From assembly GCA_016926055.1 (NCBI GenBank), contig JAFGPE010000046.1, positions 1-33,752 on the forward strand: 33,752 nucleotides of DNA, written 5' to 3'. The notes below the pieces were generated by a model that did no database searches, had not been told where the DNA came from, and was given only the letters and a program-made list of their open reading frames with translations. Position numbers and translations under genes: made by a program. This document shows positions 381-10,445 of this stretch, in pieces; position 1 is the first letter of the stretch, and each line of letters opens with the position of its first letter. The stretch is from Candidatus Woesearchaeota archaeon. GTDB lineage: Archaea; Nanobdellota; Nanobdellia; Woesearchaeales; JAADFO01.

Positions 381-1703
381 CTATAATCTAACATTAGAGC
401 CGTTATGCATCAGATGTACAGACCTATCTGCCTTATATCCCATGTCCTCTGCCAACCCATTCATTGCCGCTGTCATCTTCCTTGTGCCGTGTGCAGGAAT
501 TATATGTTCCGGCTTTACAAGGTTAATTAAGTCCCTTAAGTCCTCCCTAGCTGCATGCCCGCTCTGGTGAATGTCTTTGAAAATCCTGACACCGTCTTCT
601 GCAAGTACTCTTTCGATATAATCCCTGTTTGCAATATTTGTAGGAGTGGGAATTGTCTTGCAGGAAAATATCACATGGTCTTCTGACCTGAACTTAAAGT
701 CCATCTTGTTGTCAACCATCTTTGCCAATGTTGATTTTGGCTCCCCCTGGTGTCCTGTAACAACAAGAAGATATTTATGAACGCCGTCACGCTGAATGTG
801 CTTTAATTTTCTTTTTATCTTCTTGCTATACTTCACAATCTCGACTTCCTTTGAGAAATTAACCAAACCAACAGATTCCGCAGCATGAGTATATTTACCA
901 AGGCTTCTTCCGAGAAAAACAATCTTTCTTCCCAGCTTTCTGCCAAAATCTATTATTGAATTAAGCCTTGCAATATGTGAGGCAAATGTTGTAACAATCA
1001 TCGCCTTTCCCTTTGAGTTTGTGCCAAGCATCACATCCTTCAGCATCTGCTTTGCAACAGACTCAGAAGGCATCTTCATTGCATATTCAGCATAAGTGGA
1101 ATCGACAATTAATGCCCTTACCCCTTTTTTTCCAAGCTCCTCCAATCTCTCGAAGTTCGGCTTTTTCCCGAATGTTGGATAGAGGTCGAACTTGAAATCA
1201 TTTGCATAAAGGATTATGCCTTCCCTTGTATGGACAGCAACCATTGCCGTCTGCGGAGTAGAATGGGTTACATTTATGAGCTCTACCTTGATGTTGCTGG
1301 AGAGAGGATGGACTGAATGATGGGTAAGAGTCTTTATCTTGTTCTTCAGCTTTATCTTCTCATTGACCAAGGTACTATTCAGGACAGCGGTTGTATAGGG
1401 TGTTCCAAGAACATCCGCATCAAAGTTCTGTGACTGAAAAGGTATCGCTCCAAGATGGTCAAGATGCGCATGAGTCGGAATTATCCCCTTGACGTTAAGA
1501 TGCCTTATTCCGGCAATATCAGGAATTGCCCCGGCATCGACAAGCTCCTCGGGGTTTATGTTGAGGATGTCTTCATCCTCTGTATACTTAATATAGTTTT
1601 CAAGATGGATGCCCATGTCAAGGATAACTGCCTCTCCGCCCACCTCCACACAGGTCATATTCTTGCCAACTTCATTGTATCCGCCCACTGCATGGATTTT
1701 CAT
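381..1703 (-). CDS. rnj: Ribonuclease J (beta-CASP metallo-beta-lactamase)
   Basis: GGYNEVGKNM, THAHLDH, GHQGEP, HQSGHA and IPAHG motifs. Confidence 0.93.
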   Translation of the reverse strand: MKIHAVGGYNEVGKNMTCVEVGGEAVILDMGIHLENYIKYTEDEDILNINPEELVDAGAIPDIAGIRHLNVKGIIPTHAHLDHLGAIPFQSQNFDADVLGTPYTTAVLNSTLVNEKIKLKNKIKTLTHHSVHPLSSNIKVELINVTHSTPQTAMVAVHTREGIILYANDFKFDLYPTFGKKPNFERLEELGKKGVRALIVDSTYAEYAMKMPSESVAKQMLKDVMLGTNSKGKAMIVTTFASHIARLNSIIDFGRKLGRKIVFLGRSLGKYTHAAESVGLVNFSKEVEIVKYSKKIKRKLKHIQRDGVHKYLLVVTGHQGEPKSTLAKMVDNKMDFKFRSEDHVIFSCKTIPTPTNIANRDYIERVLAEDGVRIFKDIHQSGHAAREDLRDLINLVKPEHIIPAHGTRKMTAAMNGLAEDMGYKADRSVHLMHNGSNVRL

Positions 1704-1742
1704 AAGAGAAAAGAAGATATTTGATTAGTATAAAAAGGTTTG

Positions 1743-4700
1743 TTATTTGTAATCATTCCACGCCCTGATTTCAAGGTCATCCATCTTTGTCTCAAGAAGC
1801 GCATCAACAAATACCTTCGTTATCTGAATGTTTGTGAGCAAAGGTATTGAGTAATCGACAGCATTCCTCCTTATCAAGTAATTGTCCTCTGTCACACTCC
1901 TATCAAAATCGTCGGGAATATTTATGACAAAATCGAGCTTCTTTTTCTGCATCAGGGTGATTATATTATCTTGCTTTTGGGAATTGTGGGCTTTATACAC
2001 CATTTTGTTTGGAATATTCTTTGATGTCAGGAATTCTGAAGTATGCTTCGTTGCAAATATATTGAAGCCGGCAGACGATAATGATTTTATTGTGGGCAGC
2101 AGTTTATGTTTGTTCTCATCGCCGCCAAGGCTCACAAGGACATCCTTTTTAGGCAACTCCATCCCGACAGAAAGTATCGACTTCAGGAATGCCTCGTTCA
2201 AAGTCGTACCTATTGTTGCAACCTCTCCAGTGGATGCCATCTCGACAGAAAGAACAGGGTCTGCTCCCCTAAGCCTTGAGAAAGAGAACTGCGGGGCTTT
2301 TACTCCAACCCAATCGAGGTCAAGCGTGTTAAAAGTACCTCTCGGCTTTTTTCCCATTATTGCCTTTGTTGCCAAATCAATAAAGTTTATCTTTGATACC
2401 TTTGAGACAAAAGGAAAGCTCCTTGAAGCCCTCAGGTTTAATTCAATAACCTTGATATGATTCTCTTTTGCAATGAACTGCATATTGAAAGGGCCCGTAA
2501 TCTTCAATCTCGAAGCAACATCCTTCGCAATCTTTTTTATTCTCCTGATTGTCTCGATATATGTCAGCTGGGGTGGAAACACCATTGTTGCATCTCCAGA
2601 ATGAACCCCTGCATTTTCTATGTGCTCGCTTATGGCATAGATTATGATTTTGCCATTATCTGCAACTGCATCAATCTCTATCTCCTTTGCATTTGTTATG
2701 AATTTGGAAATCACAACCGGGTGCTCGCTTGAAACATCAGTTGCTTTCTTCAGGAACTGAGCAAGGTCTTCGTGGTTGAATGCAACACTCATAGCTGCGC
2801 CTGAAAGAACATAGCTTGGCCTTATAAGAACCGGATAGCCCGCCTTGTCGGCAAACCGTTTTGCCTCTTCCACAGTCGTCAGCTCTTTCCATTCTGGCTG
2901 GTCGATGCCAAGCTCGTCAAGAAGTTTTGAGAACTTGTGCCTGTCCTCTGCATTGTCTATTGAAAGAGGGCTGGTCCCAAGAACATTCAATCCTGATTCA
3001 TGGCATTTCATCGCAATGTTATTTGGAATCTGGCCTCCTGTGGAAAGTATCATTCCATAAGGCTGCTCCTTTAAGTAAATCTCGTTGACTGTTTCGAAGG
3101 AAAGTTCGTCAAAATAGAGCTTGTCGCAGATATCATAGTCTGTTGAAACAGTCTCGGGATTGTAGTTTATCATTATGGTGCCATAGCCAAGCTTTCTTAA
3201 AGCGAATACTGAGTTAACGCAGCACCAGTCGAATTCAACAGAACTTCCAATCCTGTATGCTCCTCCTCCAAGGACAACAACAGCATTTTTATTTGCTTTT
3301 GAATAATCAATATCATCTTCCGCTGCATTGTAGGTCAGATAAAGGTAATTTGTCTTTGCAGGGTATTCTGCAGCCAATGTATCAATCTGCTTCACGAACG
3401 GATGGATGTTGTATTTTTTCCTCAAATCAAGAATGTGATTTTCGCTTGTATTGTAAATCAGGGAAAGCTGCCTGTCTGAAAAGCCAATCTTCTTCGCCTC
3501 AAGCAATAGCTCTCTTGTCTTTGGATTTGATTTGAGTTTTTTCTCCATTTCGACAATGTTTTGCATCTTGTAGATAAACCACTTGTCTATCCTTGAAAGC
3601 TCGTAAATCCTATCAACAGAGATTCCCTGTTTTATCGCCTGTATGACAGCAAAAGCTCTTTTGTCAGTCGGATTCTTCAGTTCATGCTCGACATCATCGA
3701 AGCGTATCCTGCCATTATTTGCGACAACGCCATTCATCCCCTGACCAAGCATCCTTATCGCCTTCTGGAAAGTTTCCTCGAAATTCCTGCCTATAGCCAT
3801 CACTTCTCCAACGGATTTCATCTCCGAGCCAATCTGCTTTGACACTTTAGTGAATTTCTCAAGGTCCCATCTTGGAATCTTGACAACAATATAATCCAGC
3901 GCAGGCTCGAAACATGTGCTTGTGATTTTTGTGATTGAGTTTTTAAGCTCCATTATGGAATGGCCTAGAGAAAGCTTTGCAGCAACAAAAGCAAGAGGAT
4001 ATCCTGTTGCCTTTGACGCAAGGGCTGAGCTTCTTGAAAGCCTCGCATTTACCTCTATAATTCGGTAATCCTCGCTAGTTGGGTCTAAAGCAAACTGTAT
4101 GTTGCACTCGCCGATTATTCCAAGATGCCTTATAACCCTTATGGAGATTTCCCTAAGCTTGTGGTATTCTGAATCTGTAAGAGTCTGGCTTGGAGCGACG
4201 ACAATTGACTCTCCAGTATGGATGCCAAGAGGATCGAAGTTTTCCATGTTGCACACAGTAATACAGTTGTCATGGCAATCTCTCACAACCTCATATTCAA
4301 CCTCTTTCCAGCCCGCAAGGCATTCCTCAATGAGGATTTGCTTAATATATGTAAAAGCTTTTGTTGCCATTTCAAAAAGCTGATCCTTTGTCCTTGCAAC
4401 ACCTGAACCCCTGCCACCAAGAGCGTATGCAACTCTTACCATCACAGGATATCCTATCATCGCCGCCGCCTTCAATGCATCCTCAACATTGTTAACCGCT
4501 TCACTCTTGGGTGTTTTTGCATCAATTTTGTTTAATTCATGGACGAATAATGCTCTGTCCTCTGTGTTGATAATGGTCTCGACCGGGGTTCCAAGAACCT
4601 TAACACCATATTTCTTGAAGGTACCGCTATTGAACAACTCAACGCCGCAATTAAGCGCTGTCTGGCCGCCAAAGCTAAGAAGGATTCCATCAGGCTTTTC

Positions 4701-7102: not shown

Positions 7103-7498
7103 ATGAAGGAAAAAACAGAGGCAGATTTTTTCGTGGAACTTAAGGATCCTGTTGAGTTGAGGAGAGCTGTACTTGAAGCTTCAAAGAAATCGATAAGGTT
7201 TTTGCAGAATTACGAGAGCATAAAGAAAAACAGGACAGAGAAAAGCGAGGAGATTGAGAGATTAAAGGCCACAATAAAAGAGATAAGTCTCCTTTTCACA
7301 AGACTGAAGGCAGAGCTTCCTAAAGTGAAGGACGTTCTGCCGCCTGAGTTCAAGAAATTCTTCCATTCAAGACCTGTAACTGTAAAAGTCGTAAAGCCGC
7401 CCATTGCCTCGGTTGAAATAAGACCTAGGGAGAAGGAGATAAATAAGCTGGAGCAGGAACTAAAGGACATTGAATCGGAGCTTGAAAGGCTAAGTTAA
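7103..7498 (+). CDS. Coiled-coil hypothetical protein
   Basis: SD GAGGT; begins with a similar FFVEL motif followed by heptads, and ends in a short coiled coil (LEQELKDIESELERL). Confidence 0.8.
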   Translation: MKEKTEADFFVELKDPVELRRAVLEASKKSIRFLQNYESIKKNRTEKSEEIERLKATIKEISLLFTRLKAELPKVKDVLPPEFKKFFHSRPVTVKVVKPPIASVEIRPREKEINKLEQELKDIESELERLS

Positions 7499-7542
7499 TT
7501 CTTTAGATTTTTTCACCTCATTGATTTTCTTCAGCAGTAACA

Positions 7543-7550
7543 TTTTTAAA
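7543..7550 (+). promoter_or_regulatory. TATA box of the first tRNA-Leu locus
   Basis: TTTTTAAA about 24 nt upstream of 7574, the start of the duplicated tRNA 5' end. Confidence 0.55.
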
Positions 7551-7573
7551 ACAGAGTTAATTCTCCTTGCATC

Positions 7574-7628
7574 GAGGGGATGCCGGAGAACATCTGGCGT
7601 TCCGGCGCCGGTGTCTGGACTGGCCAAA
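7574..7628 (+). repeat. Duplicated tRNA-Leu 5' fragment containing a 32-nt BHB-type intron (7589-7620) at position 15/16
   Basis: GAGGGGATGCCGGAG[insert]TGGCCAAA equals the first 23 nt of the tRNA at 7631 with one mismatch. Helix CCGG(7583-86)/CTGG(7615-18), bulges AG^A and AC^T, inner stem ACATC/GGTGT. Confidence 0.75.
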
Positions 7629-7630
7629 AT

Positions 7631-7794
7631 GCGGGGATGCCGGAGTGGCCAAACGGGATAGATTTCCGACGTCAAGGCGCTAGAAAATCCAAACTCAAGT
7701 TATTGAGTGATGAGGTCCTAAAAGGATCGATGAAATGCTCTATGGGCCATCTATTGGCTTAGTGCCTACGGGGGTTCAAATCCTCCTCCCCGCA
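7631..7794 (+). tRNA. tRNA-Leu(CAA) with two introns: 7662-7692 (30/31) and 7700-7748 (37/38)
   Basis: Acceptor GCGGGGA/TCCCCGC with A73, long variable arm, T-arm GGGGG-TTCAAAT-CCTCC. Intron 1 BHB: GGAT/ATCC, bulges AG^A and AA^A, inner TTTC/GAAA. Intron 2 BHB: CTCA/TGGG, bulges AG^T and CC^A. Spliced arm is ATAGA-CTCAAGA-TCTAT. Confidence 0.88.
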
Positions 7795-7815
7795 TATTTT
7801 TAATTTCCTAGAAAG

Positions 7816-7823
7816 TTATATAA
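7816..7823 (+). promoter_or_regulatory. BRE/TATA promoter for the structured leader and LAGLIDADG gene
   Basis: GAAAG-TTATATAA, predicting a start near 7847-7850. Confidence 0.55.
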
Positions 7824-7857
7824 ACAAATCTTTAACTATTTTTTGTTATCAACGATA

Positions 7858-7955
7858 TGTCAAAAACCACCGGTCAAAGACCAGCGGCATGTTGCTTCGT
7901 AAGCGACAGAAGATGTAATGGTTTTTGACACCTCGGAATTCTACGAATGACCGGT
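7858..7955 (+). ncRNA. Structured leader or element upstream of the LAGLIDADG gene
   Basis: Perfect 12-bp IR TGTCAAAAACCA(7858-69)/TGGTTTTTGACA(7919-30) enclosing hairpins GGTC-AAA-GACC and TGTTGCTT-CGT-AAGCGACA. Additional 8-bp pairing ACCGGTCA(7869-76)/TGACCGGT(7948-55). Confidence 0.65.
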
Positions 7956-7962
7956 AGTTTAA

Positions 7963-8724
7963 ATGAATAGTCAAAAAATAGAAAATAAAGATTTGTTAAT
8001 CAATTCGGAAATTGCTGAACTCTTAGGTGTGTTTATAGGAGATGGCTGGATTGAAAGGGATAAAGACGCACTTTACATAACTGGAAGCCAAACTGAAGAT
8101 AAAGATTATTATGATTATCACCTAGGACCATTATTTTCTAAGCATTTCTCAAAGGTAACTCCTAAGCAATTTGATTATTGGGGAGTTTATGGAATTGTAA
8201 CCTATAAAAAAGAAGCCATTAACAAAGCAATAAACCTCGATTTCCAAGTGGGACGCAAGTCTTTAGTTACAAAAATTCCTCGATACATAATGGATGCAGA
8301 AAATAAAGATATTTTTAAAGCTATTTTAAGGGGTTTATTTGATACAGATGGTTGTTTTTGGTGTGAAAAGTCAAGAGCTAAAACATCTACAAAATGGAAA
8401 AGAACACACAATTATCATCCTGAACTGAGGATTACTTCGTGTTCCAAGATGTTATTAGAGCAAGTTCATTGCTTATTAGACAGACTAGATATTGATTCTA
8501 AGGTTATTCAAAAAAGCAGAAGGGGTTTCAAAAGCGGAAGAAACGTACATGATTCTTACGCTTTGAATATCAGAAAGATTGAGGAAATTGAAAAATGGTT
8601 CAAGATTATTGGAACTAATAACCCCCGACATAAAACAAGATGTGGTGTCTGGAAGAAACTCGGTTATTTGCCATCAAACACAACAATGGAGATGAGGAAA
8701 AAGTTGTTAAACGTTAATAGGTGA
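7963..8724 (+). CDS. Free-standing two-motif LAGLIDADG (DOD-type) homing endonuclease
   Basis: Motifs AELLGVFIGDG and AILRGLFDTDG, both with the terminal acidic residue. No intein splicing blocks. Visibly more AT-rich than flanking housekeeping genes. Confidence 0.9.
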   Translation: MNSQKIENKDLLINSEIAELLGVFIGDGWIERDKDALYITGSQTEDKDYYDYHLGPLFSKHFSKVTPKQFDYWGVYGIVTYKKEAINKAINLDFQVGRKSLVTKIPRYIMDAENKDIFKAILRGLFDTDGCFWCEKSRAKTSTKWKRTHNYHPELRITSCSKMLLEQVHCLLDRLDIDSKVIQKSRRGFKSGRNVHDSYALNIRKIEEIEKWFKIIGTNNPRHKTRCGVWKKLGYLPSNTTMEMRKKLLNVNR

Positions 8725-8827
8725 GGTCCCATCCCCTCAGTTTACGAATGGGATGAATTAATCATTGTTTCCCGTTAAACTGGGCCATTGAAAATAGAGG
8801 ACAAGAAATTTTTTAAGCAATAATTAT

Positions 8828-8835
8828 TTAAATAA
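8828..8835 (+). promoter_or_regulatory. TATA box of the second tRNA-Leu locus
   Basis: TTTAAATA about 25 nt upstream of 8860. TTAATTCTC lies just before the duplicated 5' end at both tRNA loci. Confidence 0.55.
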
Positions 8836-8859
8836 AACCGAAACACTATTAATTCTCTT

Positions 8860-8922
8860 GCGAGGATGCCGGTAGTGGAAATCTGTGATTTCCGGACCGT
8901 CATCTTCTCAACCCGAAGGTCT
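8860..8922 (+). repeat. Duplicated tRNA-Leu 5' end (13 nt) followed by a structured insert
   Basis: GCGAGGATGCCGG at 8860-8872 is identical to 8923-8935. It is followed by hairpin GGAAATC-TGT-GATTTCC, then CCGGAC, and CATCTTC complementary to GAGGATG. Confidence 0.7.
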
Positions 8923-9025
8923 GCGAGGATGCCGGAGCGGCCAATGACAGAAATGTCGGCCATACGGGCTAGGTTCAGGGCCTAGTGGCTTAGTGCCTAC
9001 GGGGGTTCGAATCCCCTTTCTCGCA
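8923..9025 (+). tRNA. tRNA-Leu(CAG) with a 19-nt D-loop intron (8945-8963)
   Basis: Acceptor GCGAGGA/TTCTCGC with A73; anticodon arm CTAGG-TTCAGGG-CCTAG. Intron motif is helix GGCC/GGCC, bulges AA^T and AT^A, inner GACA-GAAA-TGTC. Splicing restores GGCCAAACGG as in the first tRNA. A T-run follows. Confidence 0.93.
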
Positions 9026-9066
9026 TTTTTTCTTTAGTAACCTATTTAAATAAGTATAAACTCTAG

Positions 9067-10445
<1,379 letters not shown>

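Follow-up and report, generated by a model that had tools for sequence, protein, structure and literature searches.

A predicted three-exon tRNA-Leu(CAA) gene with a K-turn motif in its canonical intron in Woesearchaeales-type archaea

Locus and tRNA identity

The window analyzed in this work is the whole 33,752-nt stretch of contig JAFGPE010000046.1 (C96) from the Candidatus Woesearchaeota assembly GCA_016926055.1 (G000; 1.62 Mb, 172 contigs, 86% complete). Positions 7631-7794 of its forward strand hold a tRNA gene, with the sequence and coordinates as the original prediction had described them. The Rfam alignment spans model positions 1-71 and leaves 83 inserted bases in the anticodon region; the place of the anticodon loop is taken by 87 nt instead of 7, between AUAGA (7658-7662) and UCUAU (7750-7754). 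The remainder is a class II Leu body with the acceptor stem GCGGGGA/UCCCCGC, a T-arm, a long variable arm and discriminator A. Two further tRNA genes in this genome, Leu(GAG) (contig C25) and Leu(CAG) (8924-9025 of the window), have a nearly identical body. The locus is in all likelihood a functional three-exon tRNA-Leu(CAA) gene, interrupted by two bulge-helix-bulge (BHB) introns, in a Woesearchaeales-type archaeon of the DPANN group. Its parts are as follows.

7631-7794, forward strand: tRNA-Leu(CAA) gene (Rfam RF00005 match, 38.3 bits; gathering score 29)
7631-7661, forward strand: exon 1, tRNA positions 1-30, with the acceptor 5' strand GCGGGGA, the D-arm and the anticodon-stem 5' strand AUAG (Rfam alignment, cloverleaf after splicing)
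7662-7692, forward strand: predicted intron 1, 31 nt, a hairpin at the non-canonical site 30/31 (BHB with p = 7661, q = 7693)
7693-7699, forward strand: micro-exon ACUCAAG, positions 31-37, with the anticodon CAA at 7696-7698 (in-silico splicing)
7700-7748, forward strand: predicted intron 2, 49 nt, at the canonical site 37/38 (BHB with p = 7699, q = 7749)
7749-7794, forward strand: exon 3, positions 38-73, with A38, UCUAU, the variable arm, the T-arm, the acceptor 3' strand and discriminator A (Rfam, in-silico splicing)

Removal of 7662-7692 and 7700-7748 in silico leaves an 84-nt RNA that ARAGORN, in its default mode, calls tRNA-Leu(caa). The product is a normal class II cloverleaf with the loop CU-CAA-GA and A73, and its acceptor stem, T stem and anticodon stem are all perfect. 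The 86%-complete assembly yielded no second Leu(CAA) gene.

The two intron borders were drawn with a single BHB rule. For a 5' cut after position p and a 3' cut before position q, the central helix pairs p-5..p-2 with q-6..q-3, the bulges comprise 3 nt each (p-1..p+1 and q-2..q), and the cut falls after the second base of the bulge. The 4-bp central helix and both 3-nt bulges are present at 7661/7693 and at 7699/7749. In intron 1, GGAU (7656-7659, tRNA positions 25-28) pairs with AUCC (7687-7690) at the 3' end of the intron; the inner helix has 4 bp (UUUC/GAAA) and the outer helix 1 bp, and this motif is the same whether or not intron 2 has been removed. In intron 2, CUCA (7694-7697, positions 32-35) pairs with UGGG (7743-7746), again at the intron 3' end, with the bulges AGU and CCA cut after AG and after CC. 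Its inner helix consists of 2 contiguous bp followed by a UU bulge. The outer helix of intron 2, 1 bp in the unspliced RNA, grows to 6 bp once intron 1 is removed.

Orthologues, splicing and alternative readings

Used as a query together with its introns, the entire 164-nt gene is matched over its full length, at 74-88% identity, in 8 genomes from other families of the same order. With the intron-bearing core as query, 56 of the 401 genomes of the order match (E <= 0.001), a tally that includes G000 and four unpublished genomes (G211, G315, G335 and G303) whose loci were left unused; without these four it becomes 52 of 397. An exact-pattern scan over one genome per prokaryote species returned 77 stretches. 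Their titles name Woesearchaeota, Nanoarchaeota and Nanoarchaeia metagenome-assembled genomes (MAGs), unclassified 'archaeon' MAGs and some third-party bins labeled 'uncultured Methanosarcinales' or 'uncultured archaeon'. In all, 83 distinct orthologue cores were collected from Woesearchaeota/Nanoarchaeota genomes. The regular expression used for extraction demanded an internal CTCAA between ACGGGRYAG on the 5' side and the motif of the 3' exon, and 48 of the 83 cores came from the pattern scan, which fixed ACTCAAR, GAGT, TGANG and the 3' exon.

Both introns are found in 75 of these orthologues and intron 2 alone in the other 8, intron 2 being present in all 83. The eight genes that lack intron 1 read GGGAYAGACTCAAG, that is GGGAYAG-ACTCAAG without interruption, which is exactly the exon junction predicted for removal of intron 1. 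ACTCAA is kept in every orthologue of the collection, whose selection itself demanded CTCAA.

The 75 two-intron orthologues were aligned with MAFFT. Standard base pairs make up 92.9% of the proposed pairs in this alignment; none of 500 shuffles does as well, and sliding the structures by 1-3 columns lowers the share to 26-45%. The central helix of intron 1 is paired in 75/75 orthologues and is recovered by RNAalifold unprompted. Position 28 of the tRNA forms UA (38 genes), CG (25) or UG (12) with its intron 1 base, and UA (50) or CG (25) with position 42; the 25 genes with C28 therefore have G at both partners. Such a three-way covariation would be expected if position 28 pairs with the intron first and within the anticodon stem later. 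The intron-1 letters in this analysis were unconstrained by the search patterns. The central helix of intron 2 is 96.7% paired in the same alignment; with the anticodon loop as its exon side, it is not free to co-vary. At the level of sequence, the comparative data beat chance for the reading with two introns. The original prediction had placed the borders at 7662-7692 (30/31) and 7700-7748 (37/38): the in-silico Leu(caa) product and the same layout in 75 orthologues agree with these borders, covariation backs the helices that define them, and the junction predicted for a gene without intron 1, with its micro-exon ACTCAAG, is written in the DNA of eight relatives. As judged from the alignment, the design goes beyond that single locus and is widespread in the lineage, and many families of the order preserve it with compensatory changes.

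The orthologues also differ in how many insertions they carry. Three are present in 25 of the 83, and four genes (L024, L066, L131 and L140) have four each, in the D-loop, at 30/31, at 37/38 and in the T-arm; removal of all four gives an 84-nt Leu(caa) in ARAGORN. The D-loop insertions of these four genes have central helices of 3-4 bp, two of them without flanking pairs. This compares with 'up to three' introns per archaeal tRNA gene in the tRNAscan-SE 2.0 paper (PMC8450103). The 83 genes thus form a natural series in which a single gene has from one to four insertions, placed at fixed sites, and the series together with the covariation sets an old intron (37/38, K-turn-bearing) apart from later gains.

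ARAGORN reads the locus in another manner. Its default mode reports no tRNA in the window, and its intron mode calls C96:7630-7795 a tRNA-Gly(tcc) with i(40,69), i.e. a 69-nt intron. The gene would then contain one long intron and a different anticodon, either Gly(UCC) with the 69-nt intron and use of a second UCUAU (7739-7743) or an 80-nt intron leaving UCC, UGC or GGC. The products of single-intron removal do fold as tRNAs in ARAGORN, and a BHB-like row exists at 7668/7738 with a 5-bp outer helix. However, the body is that of a class II Leu tRNA with discriminator A, and all 8 possible 80-nt removals leave GGC, TGC or TCC, anticodons of Ala or Gly type on a Leu body. The bases of the UCC loop lie in intron 1, are freely variable in the 75 orthologues and are absent from the other 8; the second UCUAU is unconserved, and every orthologue retains CUCAAG. 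Gly(tcc) has a gene of its own on C62. We regard a single long intron as extremely improbable. Both the restriction of 80-nt removals to these three anticodons and the failure of standard scanners had been anticipated in the original prediction, and the latter holds for ARAGORN in either mode.

The odd leader with its partial duplicate of the gene's 5' end (described below) and the relaxed BHBs of the unspliced RNA could instead suggest that the locus is a relic or a pseudogene in decay, from which no working tRNA is spliced. The acceptor, T and anticodon stems are nevertheless perfect after splicing, the layout is maintained with compensatory changes in the many families behind the genome tally given above, and the gene is the sole Leu(CAA) candidate in the assembly. 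These observations make decay very improbable.

The reading with two introns requires a splicing endonuclease and a ligase, and the assembly encodes both.

L155 (G000:C33) 1474-2121, reverse strand: EndA gene (profile matches: PF01974, C-terminal and catalytic, 96.9 bits; PF02778, N-terminal, 58 bits)

This is a single alpha-type EndA gene. The closest relatives of its product with solved structures are the alpha subunit from N. equitans and the alpha4 enzyme from M. jannaschii. The assembly yielded no other EndA-like gene, and the enzyme is therefore presumably of the alpha4 type. The RtcB ligase is encoded as well (567.7 bits). The BHB of intron 1, in which the intron 3' end occupies positions 25-28, would form only while the anticodon stem is open, in competition with that stem and the upper part of the D-arm. 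The BHB of intron 2, built from anticodon-loop bases 32-35 and the intron 3' end, would gain its full outer helix only after intron 1 has gone. Intron 1 is likely to leave first, because it uses positions 25-28 and because the outer helix of intron 2 goes from 1 to 6 bp afterwards; the canonical 37/38 substrate would follow. Ordered splicing, raised as a possibility in the original prediction, is thus plausible. Cutting by EndA and joining by RtcB, whose genes are both present, would give the 84-nt tRNA. Archaeal tRNA introns so close that one must leave before the motif of the next can form have been described (PMC8450103).

Several points weigh against this picture. The relaxed BHB rule finds 89 BHB-like site pairs within 7560-7800, and brute-force BHB removal followed by ARAGORN gives 19 alternative 'solutions' for the gene (in an incomplete run) and dozens for its relatives; with so many solutions, this search was rejected as a discriminating method. 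Because of the 89 site pairs and 19 solutions, the BHB argument from the single sequence is no better than chance, and the case for two introns therefore rests on the orthologue comparison. Within that comparison, conservation of the pattern-fixed letters is partly circular. Judged by the strict hBHBh' form, both BHBs are relaxed in the unspliced RNA, with a 1-bp outer helix each. We infer the splice junctions, the order of splicing and the expression of the gene. Two metatranscriptome runs from the study that also supplied the DNA gave no reads over 7400-9100, a result without bearing on expression. Enzymes of the alpha4 type are classically strict. When this EndA is aligned with the alpha subunit from N. 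equitans, gaps appear at one insertion, and loop-bearing alpha4 EndAs in several DPANN lineages go with heavily disrupted tRNA genes (PMC5829648).

Beside the EndA gene, and head to head with it, lies an open reading frame of 298 aa (L155, G000:C33, 2073-2969, forward strand) with an HxHxDH-type motif. The motif suggests that the product may be an RNase Z (metallo-beta-lactamase fold); if so, two tRNA-processing genes are neighbors here.

Multi-intron tRNA genes were reportedly described in Thermoproteales and in ARMAN (archaeal Richmond Mine acidophilic nanoorganisms)/DPANN archaea by Sugahara in 2007/2008 and Fujishima in 2011. Like those genes, the present one combines canonical and non-canonical BHB introns (PMC8450103, PMC5829648), so close together that removal of one completes the BHB of the next. 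The published cases are linked to broad-specificity or loop-bearing endonucleases and are missed by standard finders; the Leu(CAA) host, in contrast, has a single alpha-type EndA gene. The present gene also differs in that both introns lie in the anticodon arm with a 7-nt exon between them, and in that the pair is conserved with covariation across Woesearchaeales families, unlike a sporadic recent insertion. The four orthologues with four insertions exceed the three of PMC8450103. Multi-intron BHB tRNA genes and K-turn-bearing tRNA introns are both known kinds, and the gene is a well-supported new example whose comparative record is unusually clean. Genes of this type are missed or mis-assigned (Gly for Leu), which distorts estimates of completeness and decoding in DPANN genomes.

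The K-turn motif of intron 2 and a candidate guide for C34

Intron 2 is, as the comparison indicates, the older and conserved part of the gene, and it carries a putative kink-turn (K-turn) RNA that the original prediction had overlooked. The features that bear on it, in the window and elsewhere in the assembly, are these.

7703-7709, forward strand: guide-like element UUGAGU(G), with UUGAGU (7703-7708) complementary to ACUCAA (7693-7698, positions 31-36)
7710-7733, forward strand: K-turn motif (sequence, covariation), with the D'-like box AUGA (7710-7713), the C-stem GGUCC/GGAUC (7714-7718 with 7724-7728), the bulge GAU (7729-7731) and GA (7732-7733)
G000:C149:76-221, forward strand: tRNA-Trp(CCA) with a ~72-nt intron and the same K-turn module (genome-wide K-turn scan)
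G000:C59:3-209, forward strand: C-terminal fibrillarin fragment cut by the contig end, profile positions 157-226, 58 bits (profile match)

From the 5' splice site the intron reads UUGAGUG, AUGA, the hairpin GGUCC-UAAAA-GGAUC (7714-7728) and GAUGA (7729-7733). This is the K-turn pattern, with GA directly 5' of a canonical stem and, on the other strand, a 3-nt bulge followed by GA. G7712, A7713, U7731, G7732 and A7733 are invariant in 75/75 orthologues, an invariance partly imposed by the search, which fixed the 5' GA and part of the context for 48 of the sequences. The C-stem shows double compensatory changes in all five of its pairs. Among the 79 orthologues that could be parsed, the D'-like box is AUGA in 64, CUGA in 11, ACGA in 2 and GUGA in 2. 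The tandem sheared G.A pairs, 3-nt bulge and canonical stem that define the K-turn or K-loop of a guide RNA are thus represented here in sequence and covariation. The genome encodes L7Ae (102.7 bits), and this K-turn is probably an L7Ae site.

Upstream of the K-turn, G7705 is the fifth base before the D'-like box (N+5) and pairs with C7696, the C34 of the anticodon. In box C/D guides, the fifth base upstream of the D or D' box specifies the nucleotide to be methylated (PMC7994747). N+5 is G in 79/79 parsed orthologues, and at least 6 contiguous pairs with the target are present in 63 of them. In the subset collected by similarity only (35 sequences, 29 parsed), the corresponding figures are 28/29 and 22/29. 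RNAalifold recovers the ACUC/GAGU helix unprompted, and the minimum-free-energy fold of the pre-tRNA in ViennaRNA contains the ACUC/GAGU hairpin. Within the BHB inner helix, GAG has a further partner in CUC (92% paired). This pair never co-varies: the two G are invariant and the A nearly so, while the CUC side drifts, which suggests a second constraint on GAG.

A genome-wide scan for K-turn hairpins gave 198 pattern hits, 6 of them with an upstream 6-nt self-complement. Two of these six lie in tRNA introns, those of tRNA-Leu(CAA) and of tRNA-Trp on C149. The Trp module reads CUGGAG-CG-AUGA, a stem GGCA/UGCC and then GAUGA, and its N+5 base pairs with C34 of tRNA-Trp. Its guide, CUGGAG, differs from that of the Leu intron, and the register in which it matches the anticodon loop of its own tRNA is the same.

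These observations raise the possibility, to which we give close to an even chance, that intron 2 guides 2'-O-methylation of C34 (Cm34). It would act as a single-domain box C/D-like guide, probably in trans; trans action is more likely because the loop of the cis hairpin measures 4-5 nt in most genes and 1 nt in L077. A somewhat bolder proposal, which we hold a shade less firmly, is that Woesearchaeales keep the ancient Leu(CAA) intron as a minimal self-targeting guide with a single K-turn, and that the module was re-aimed in the Trp intron.

Alternatively, the gene may be as described and the K-turn only structural or L7Ae-binding, stiffening the intron helix, chaperoning the competing folds or stabilizing the excised intron, without guiding methylation. 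GAG would then be conserved through a non-canonical stem with CUC, consistent with the pairing of this segment in the BHB inner helix. There is one K-turn only: neither the intron 2 sequence nor the 75-sequence alignment shows a C box upstream of the guide or, at constant spacing downstream, a D box, and the two box sets (C/D and C'/D') of a complete guide RNA are not seen. The antisense element extends over 6-7 nt (6-7 contiguous pairs in the 63 genes counted above), compared with 10-12 nt in archaeal guides (PMC7994747). Exceptions occur as well, since L068 keeps the stem with only 3 guide pairs, and the single-intron genes L027 and L046 are, by eye, without G at N+5. Rfam at a permissive threshold reports for intron 2 only sR5, at 11.6 bits vs 40 (E = 2.3), which is not evidence for a guide. 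Finally, Nop5 was not found in the 86%-complete assembly. Nop5 is usually the upstream neighbor of fibrillarin. Its gene is present in 38 of 40 relatives, and it is probably missing from the assembly through the same contig end that cuts fibrillarin.

Other evidence speaks against a purely structural K-turn. GAG stays invariant or nearly so while its partner drifts from CUC to CUU, UUC and CAC, and the pairs beside GAG/CUC, like those of the C-stem, co-vary freely. Although the BHB fold leaves the UU before GAG without a partner, this UU is largely retained, and it lengthens the complementarity up to A35 and A36. In the same genome, the tRNA-Trp intron holds the same module with the other guide in the same register. 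Position 34 of tRNA-Leu(CAA) is, in addition, a predicted box C/D target in Pyrococcus (PMC7994747). On balance we consider a purely structural role plausible, at roughly one chance in three.

A guide function for intron 2 would have precedents. A box C/D guide in the intron of pre-tRNA-Trp was reportedly described by Clouet d'Orval in 2001 and Singh in 2004. That euryarchaeal tRNA-Trp introns contain box C/D guides for C34 is established, in Haloferax volcanii and as Pyrococcus sR50 (PMC7994747, PMC4090602, PMC11408192). As in these, the Leu intron sits at 37/38 and contains a K-turn box motif and an antisense element, the fifth base upstream of D' matches C34 of the host, and the BHB fold and the guide-target fold are alternatives. 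The Haloferax/Pyrococcus Trp intron, as described, has both box sets of a complete C/D RNA and two guides, one for C34 and one for U39. The Leu intron offers a single D'/C'-like K-turn, which a hairpin closes, together with a single antisense element of 6-7 nt, and it lacks terminal C and D boxes. A further case is the 66-nt intron carried by the elongator tRNA-Met of Nanoarchaeum equitans (PMC3491384), also from a DPANN archaeon and with a single C/D-like box pair. Its RNA is stable and abundant by RNA-seq and was proposed as a methylation guide (Randau 2012, PMC3491384), whereas the Leu intron belongs to another tRNA. The Pyrococcus box C/D small RNA whose predicted methylation target is position 34 of tRNA-Leu(CAA) is a stand-alone, trans-acting gene with full box sets (PMC7994747), in contrast to an antisense element inside the intron of its own target. 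In eukaryotes, tRNA-Leu(CAA) likewise keeps a 37/38 intron, there needed for modification of C34, namely the intron-dependent 5-methylcytidine (m5C34) made by Trm4/NSUN2 (PMC11408192, PMC4090602). In that case a protein enzyme reads the intron-bearing fold and methylates the base, and the likeness is one of analogy only. We found no report of a tRNA-Leu intron with a K-turn or box C/D element, in a literature coverage largely outside subscription journals.

If the K-turn element guides Cm34, tRNA-Leu(CAA) would join tRNA-Trp and tRNA-Met as cases of a guide inside its target, and a very small natural box C/D-like unit would be defined. Introns of C34-tRNAs in DPANN archaea would be carriers of half-size box C/D ribonucleoproteins. 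The younger 30/31 intron would, on the same condition, make the 7-nt micro-exon alternate between a guide-bound state and two splice-competent states.

Leader repeats and other tRNA genes

Two further elements of the window lie close to the gene.

7574-7629, forward strand: leader with a degenerate copy of tRNA positions 1-24 (7574-7588 plus 7621-7629), 22/24 identical (BLAST self-hit, identity count)
8924-9025, forward strand: tRNA-Leu(CAG), 1.2 kb downstream of Leu(CAA) (Leu(cag) by ARAGORN after intron removal)

The leader copy is broken at 15/16 by a BHB-like insert of 32 nt (7589-7620; BHB row 7588/7621), the site at which some orthologues, e.g. L024, have their third intron in the D-loop. 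We infer that the leader belongs to the transcript. The Leu(CAG) gene is likewise preceded by a direct repeat of its own 5' end (8859-8873). Such repeats may be the footprint of intron loss or of partial tandem duplication. The possibility that the upstream direct repeats of both Leu genes mark 5' introns was rejected, as no convincing BHB is present at the repeat offsets.

Leu(CAG) itself went unreported by Rfam at the gathering threshold and by ARAGORN. It has a 19-nt D-loop intron (8945-8963) whose BHB has the central helix GGCC/GGCC and an inner helix of 4 bp. In the assembly as a whole, Rfam matches 17 tRNA genes (E <= 0.001), and ARAGORN reports 14 in default mode and 24 in intron mode, several of the latter probably mis-typed. 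The tRNA set of this genome needs dedicated multi-intron annotation. We also observed an initiator-type tRNA of 164 nt (G000:C83:541-704, reverse strand) that starts with AGCGGGG, ends with CCCCGCUA and contains several insertions. One of these holds the box-like motifs GUGAUAA...CUGA, and the intron mode of ARAGORN mislabels the gene as Leu(gag).

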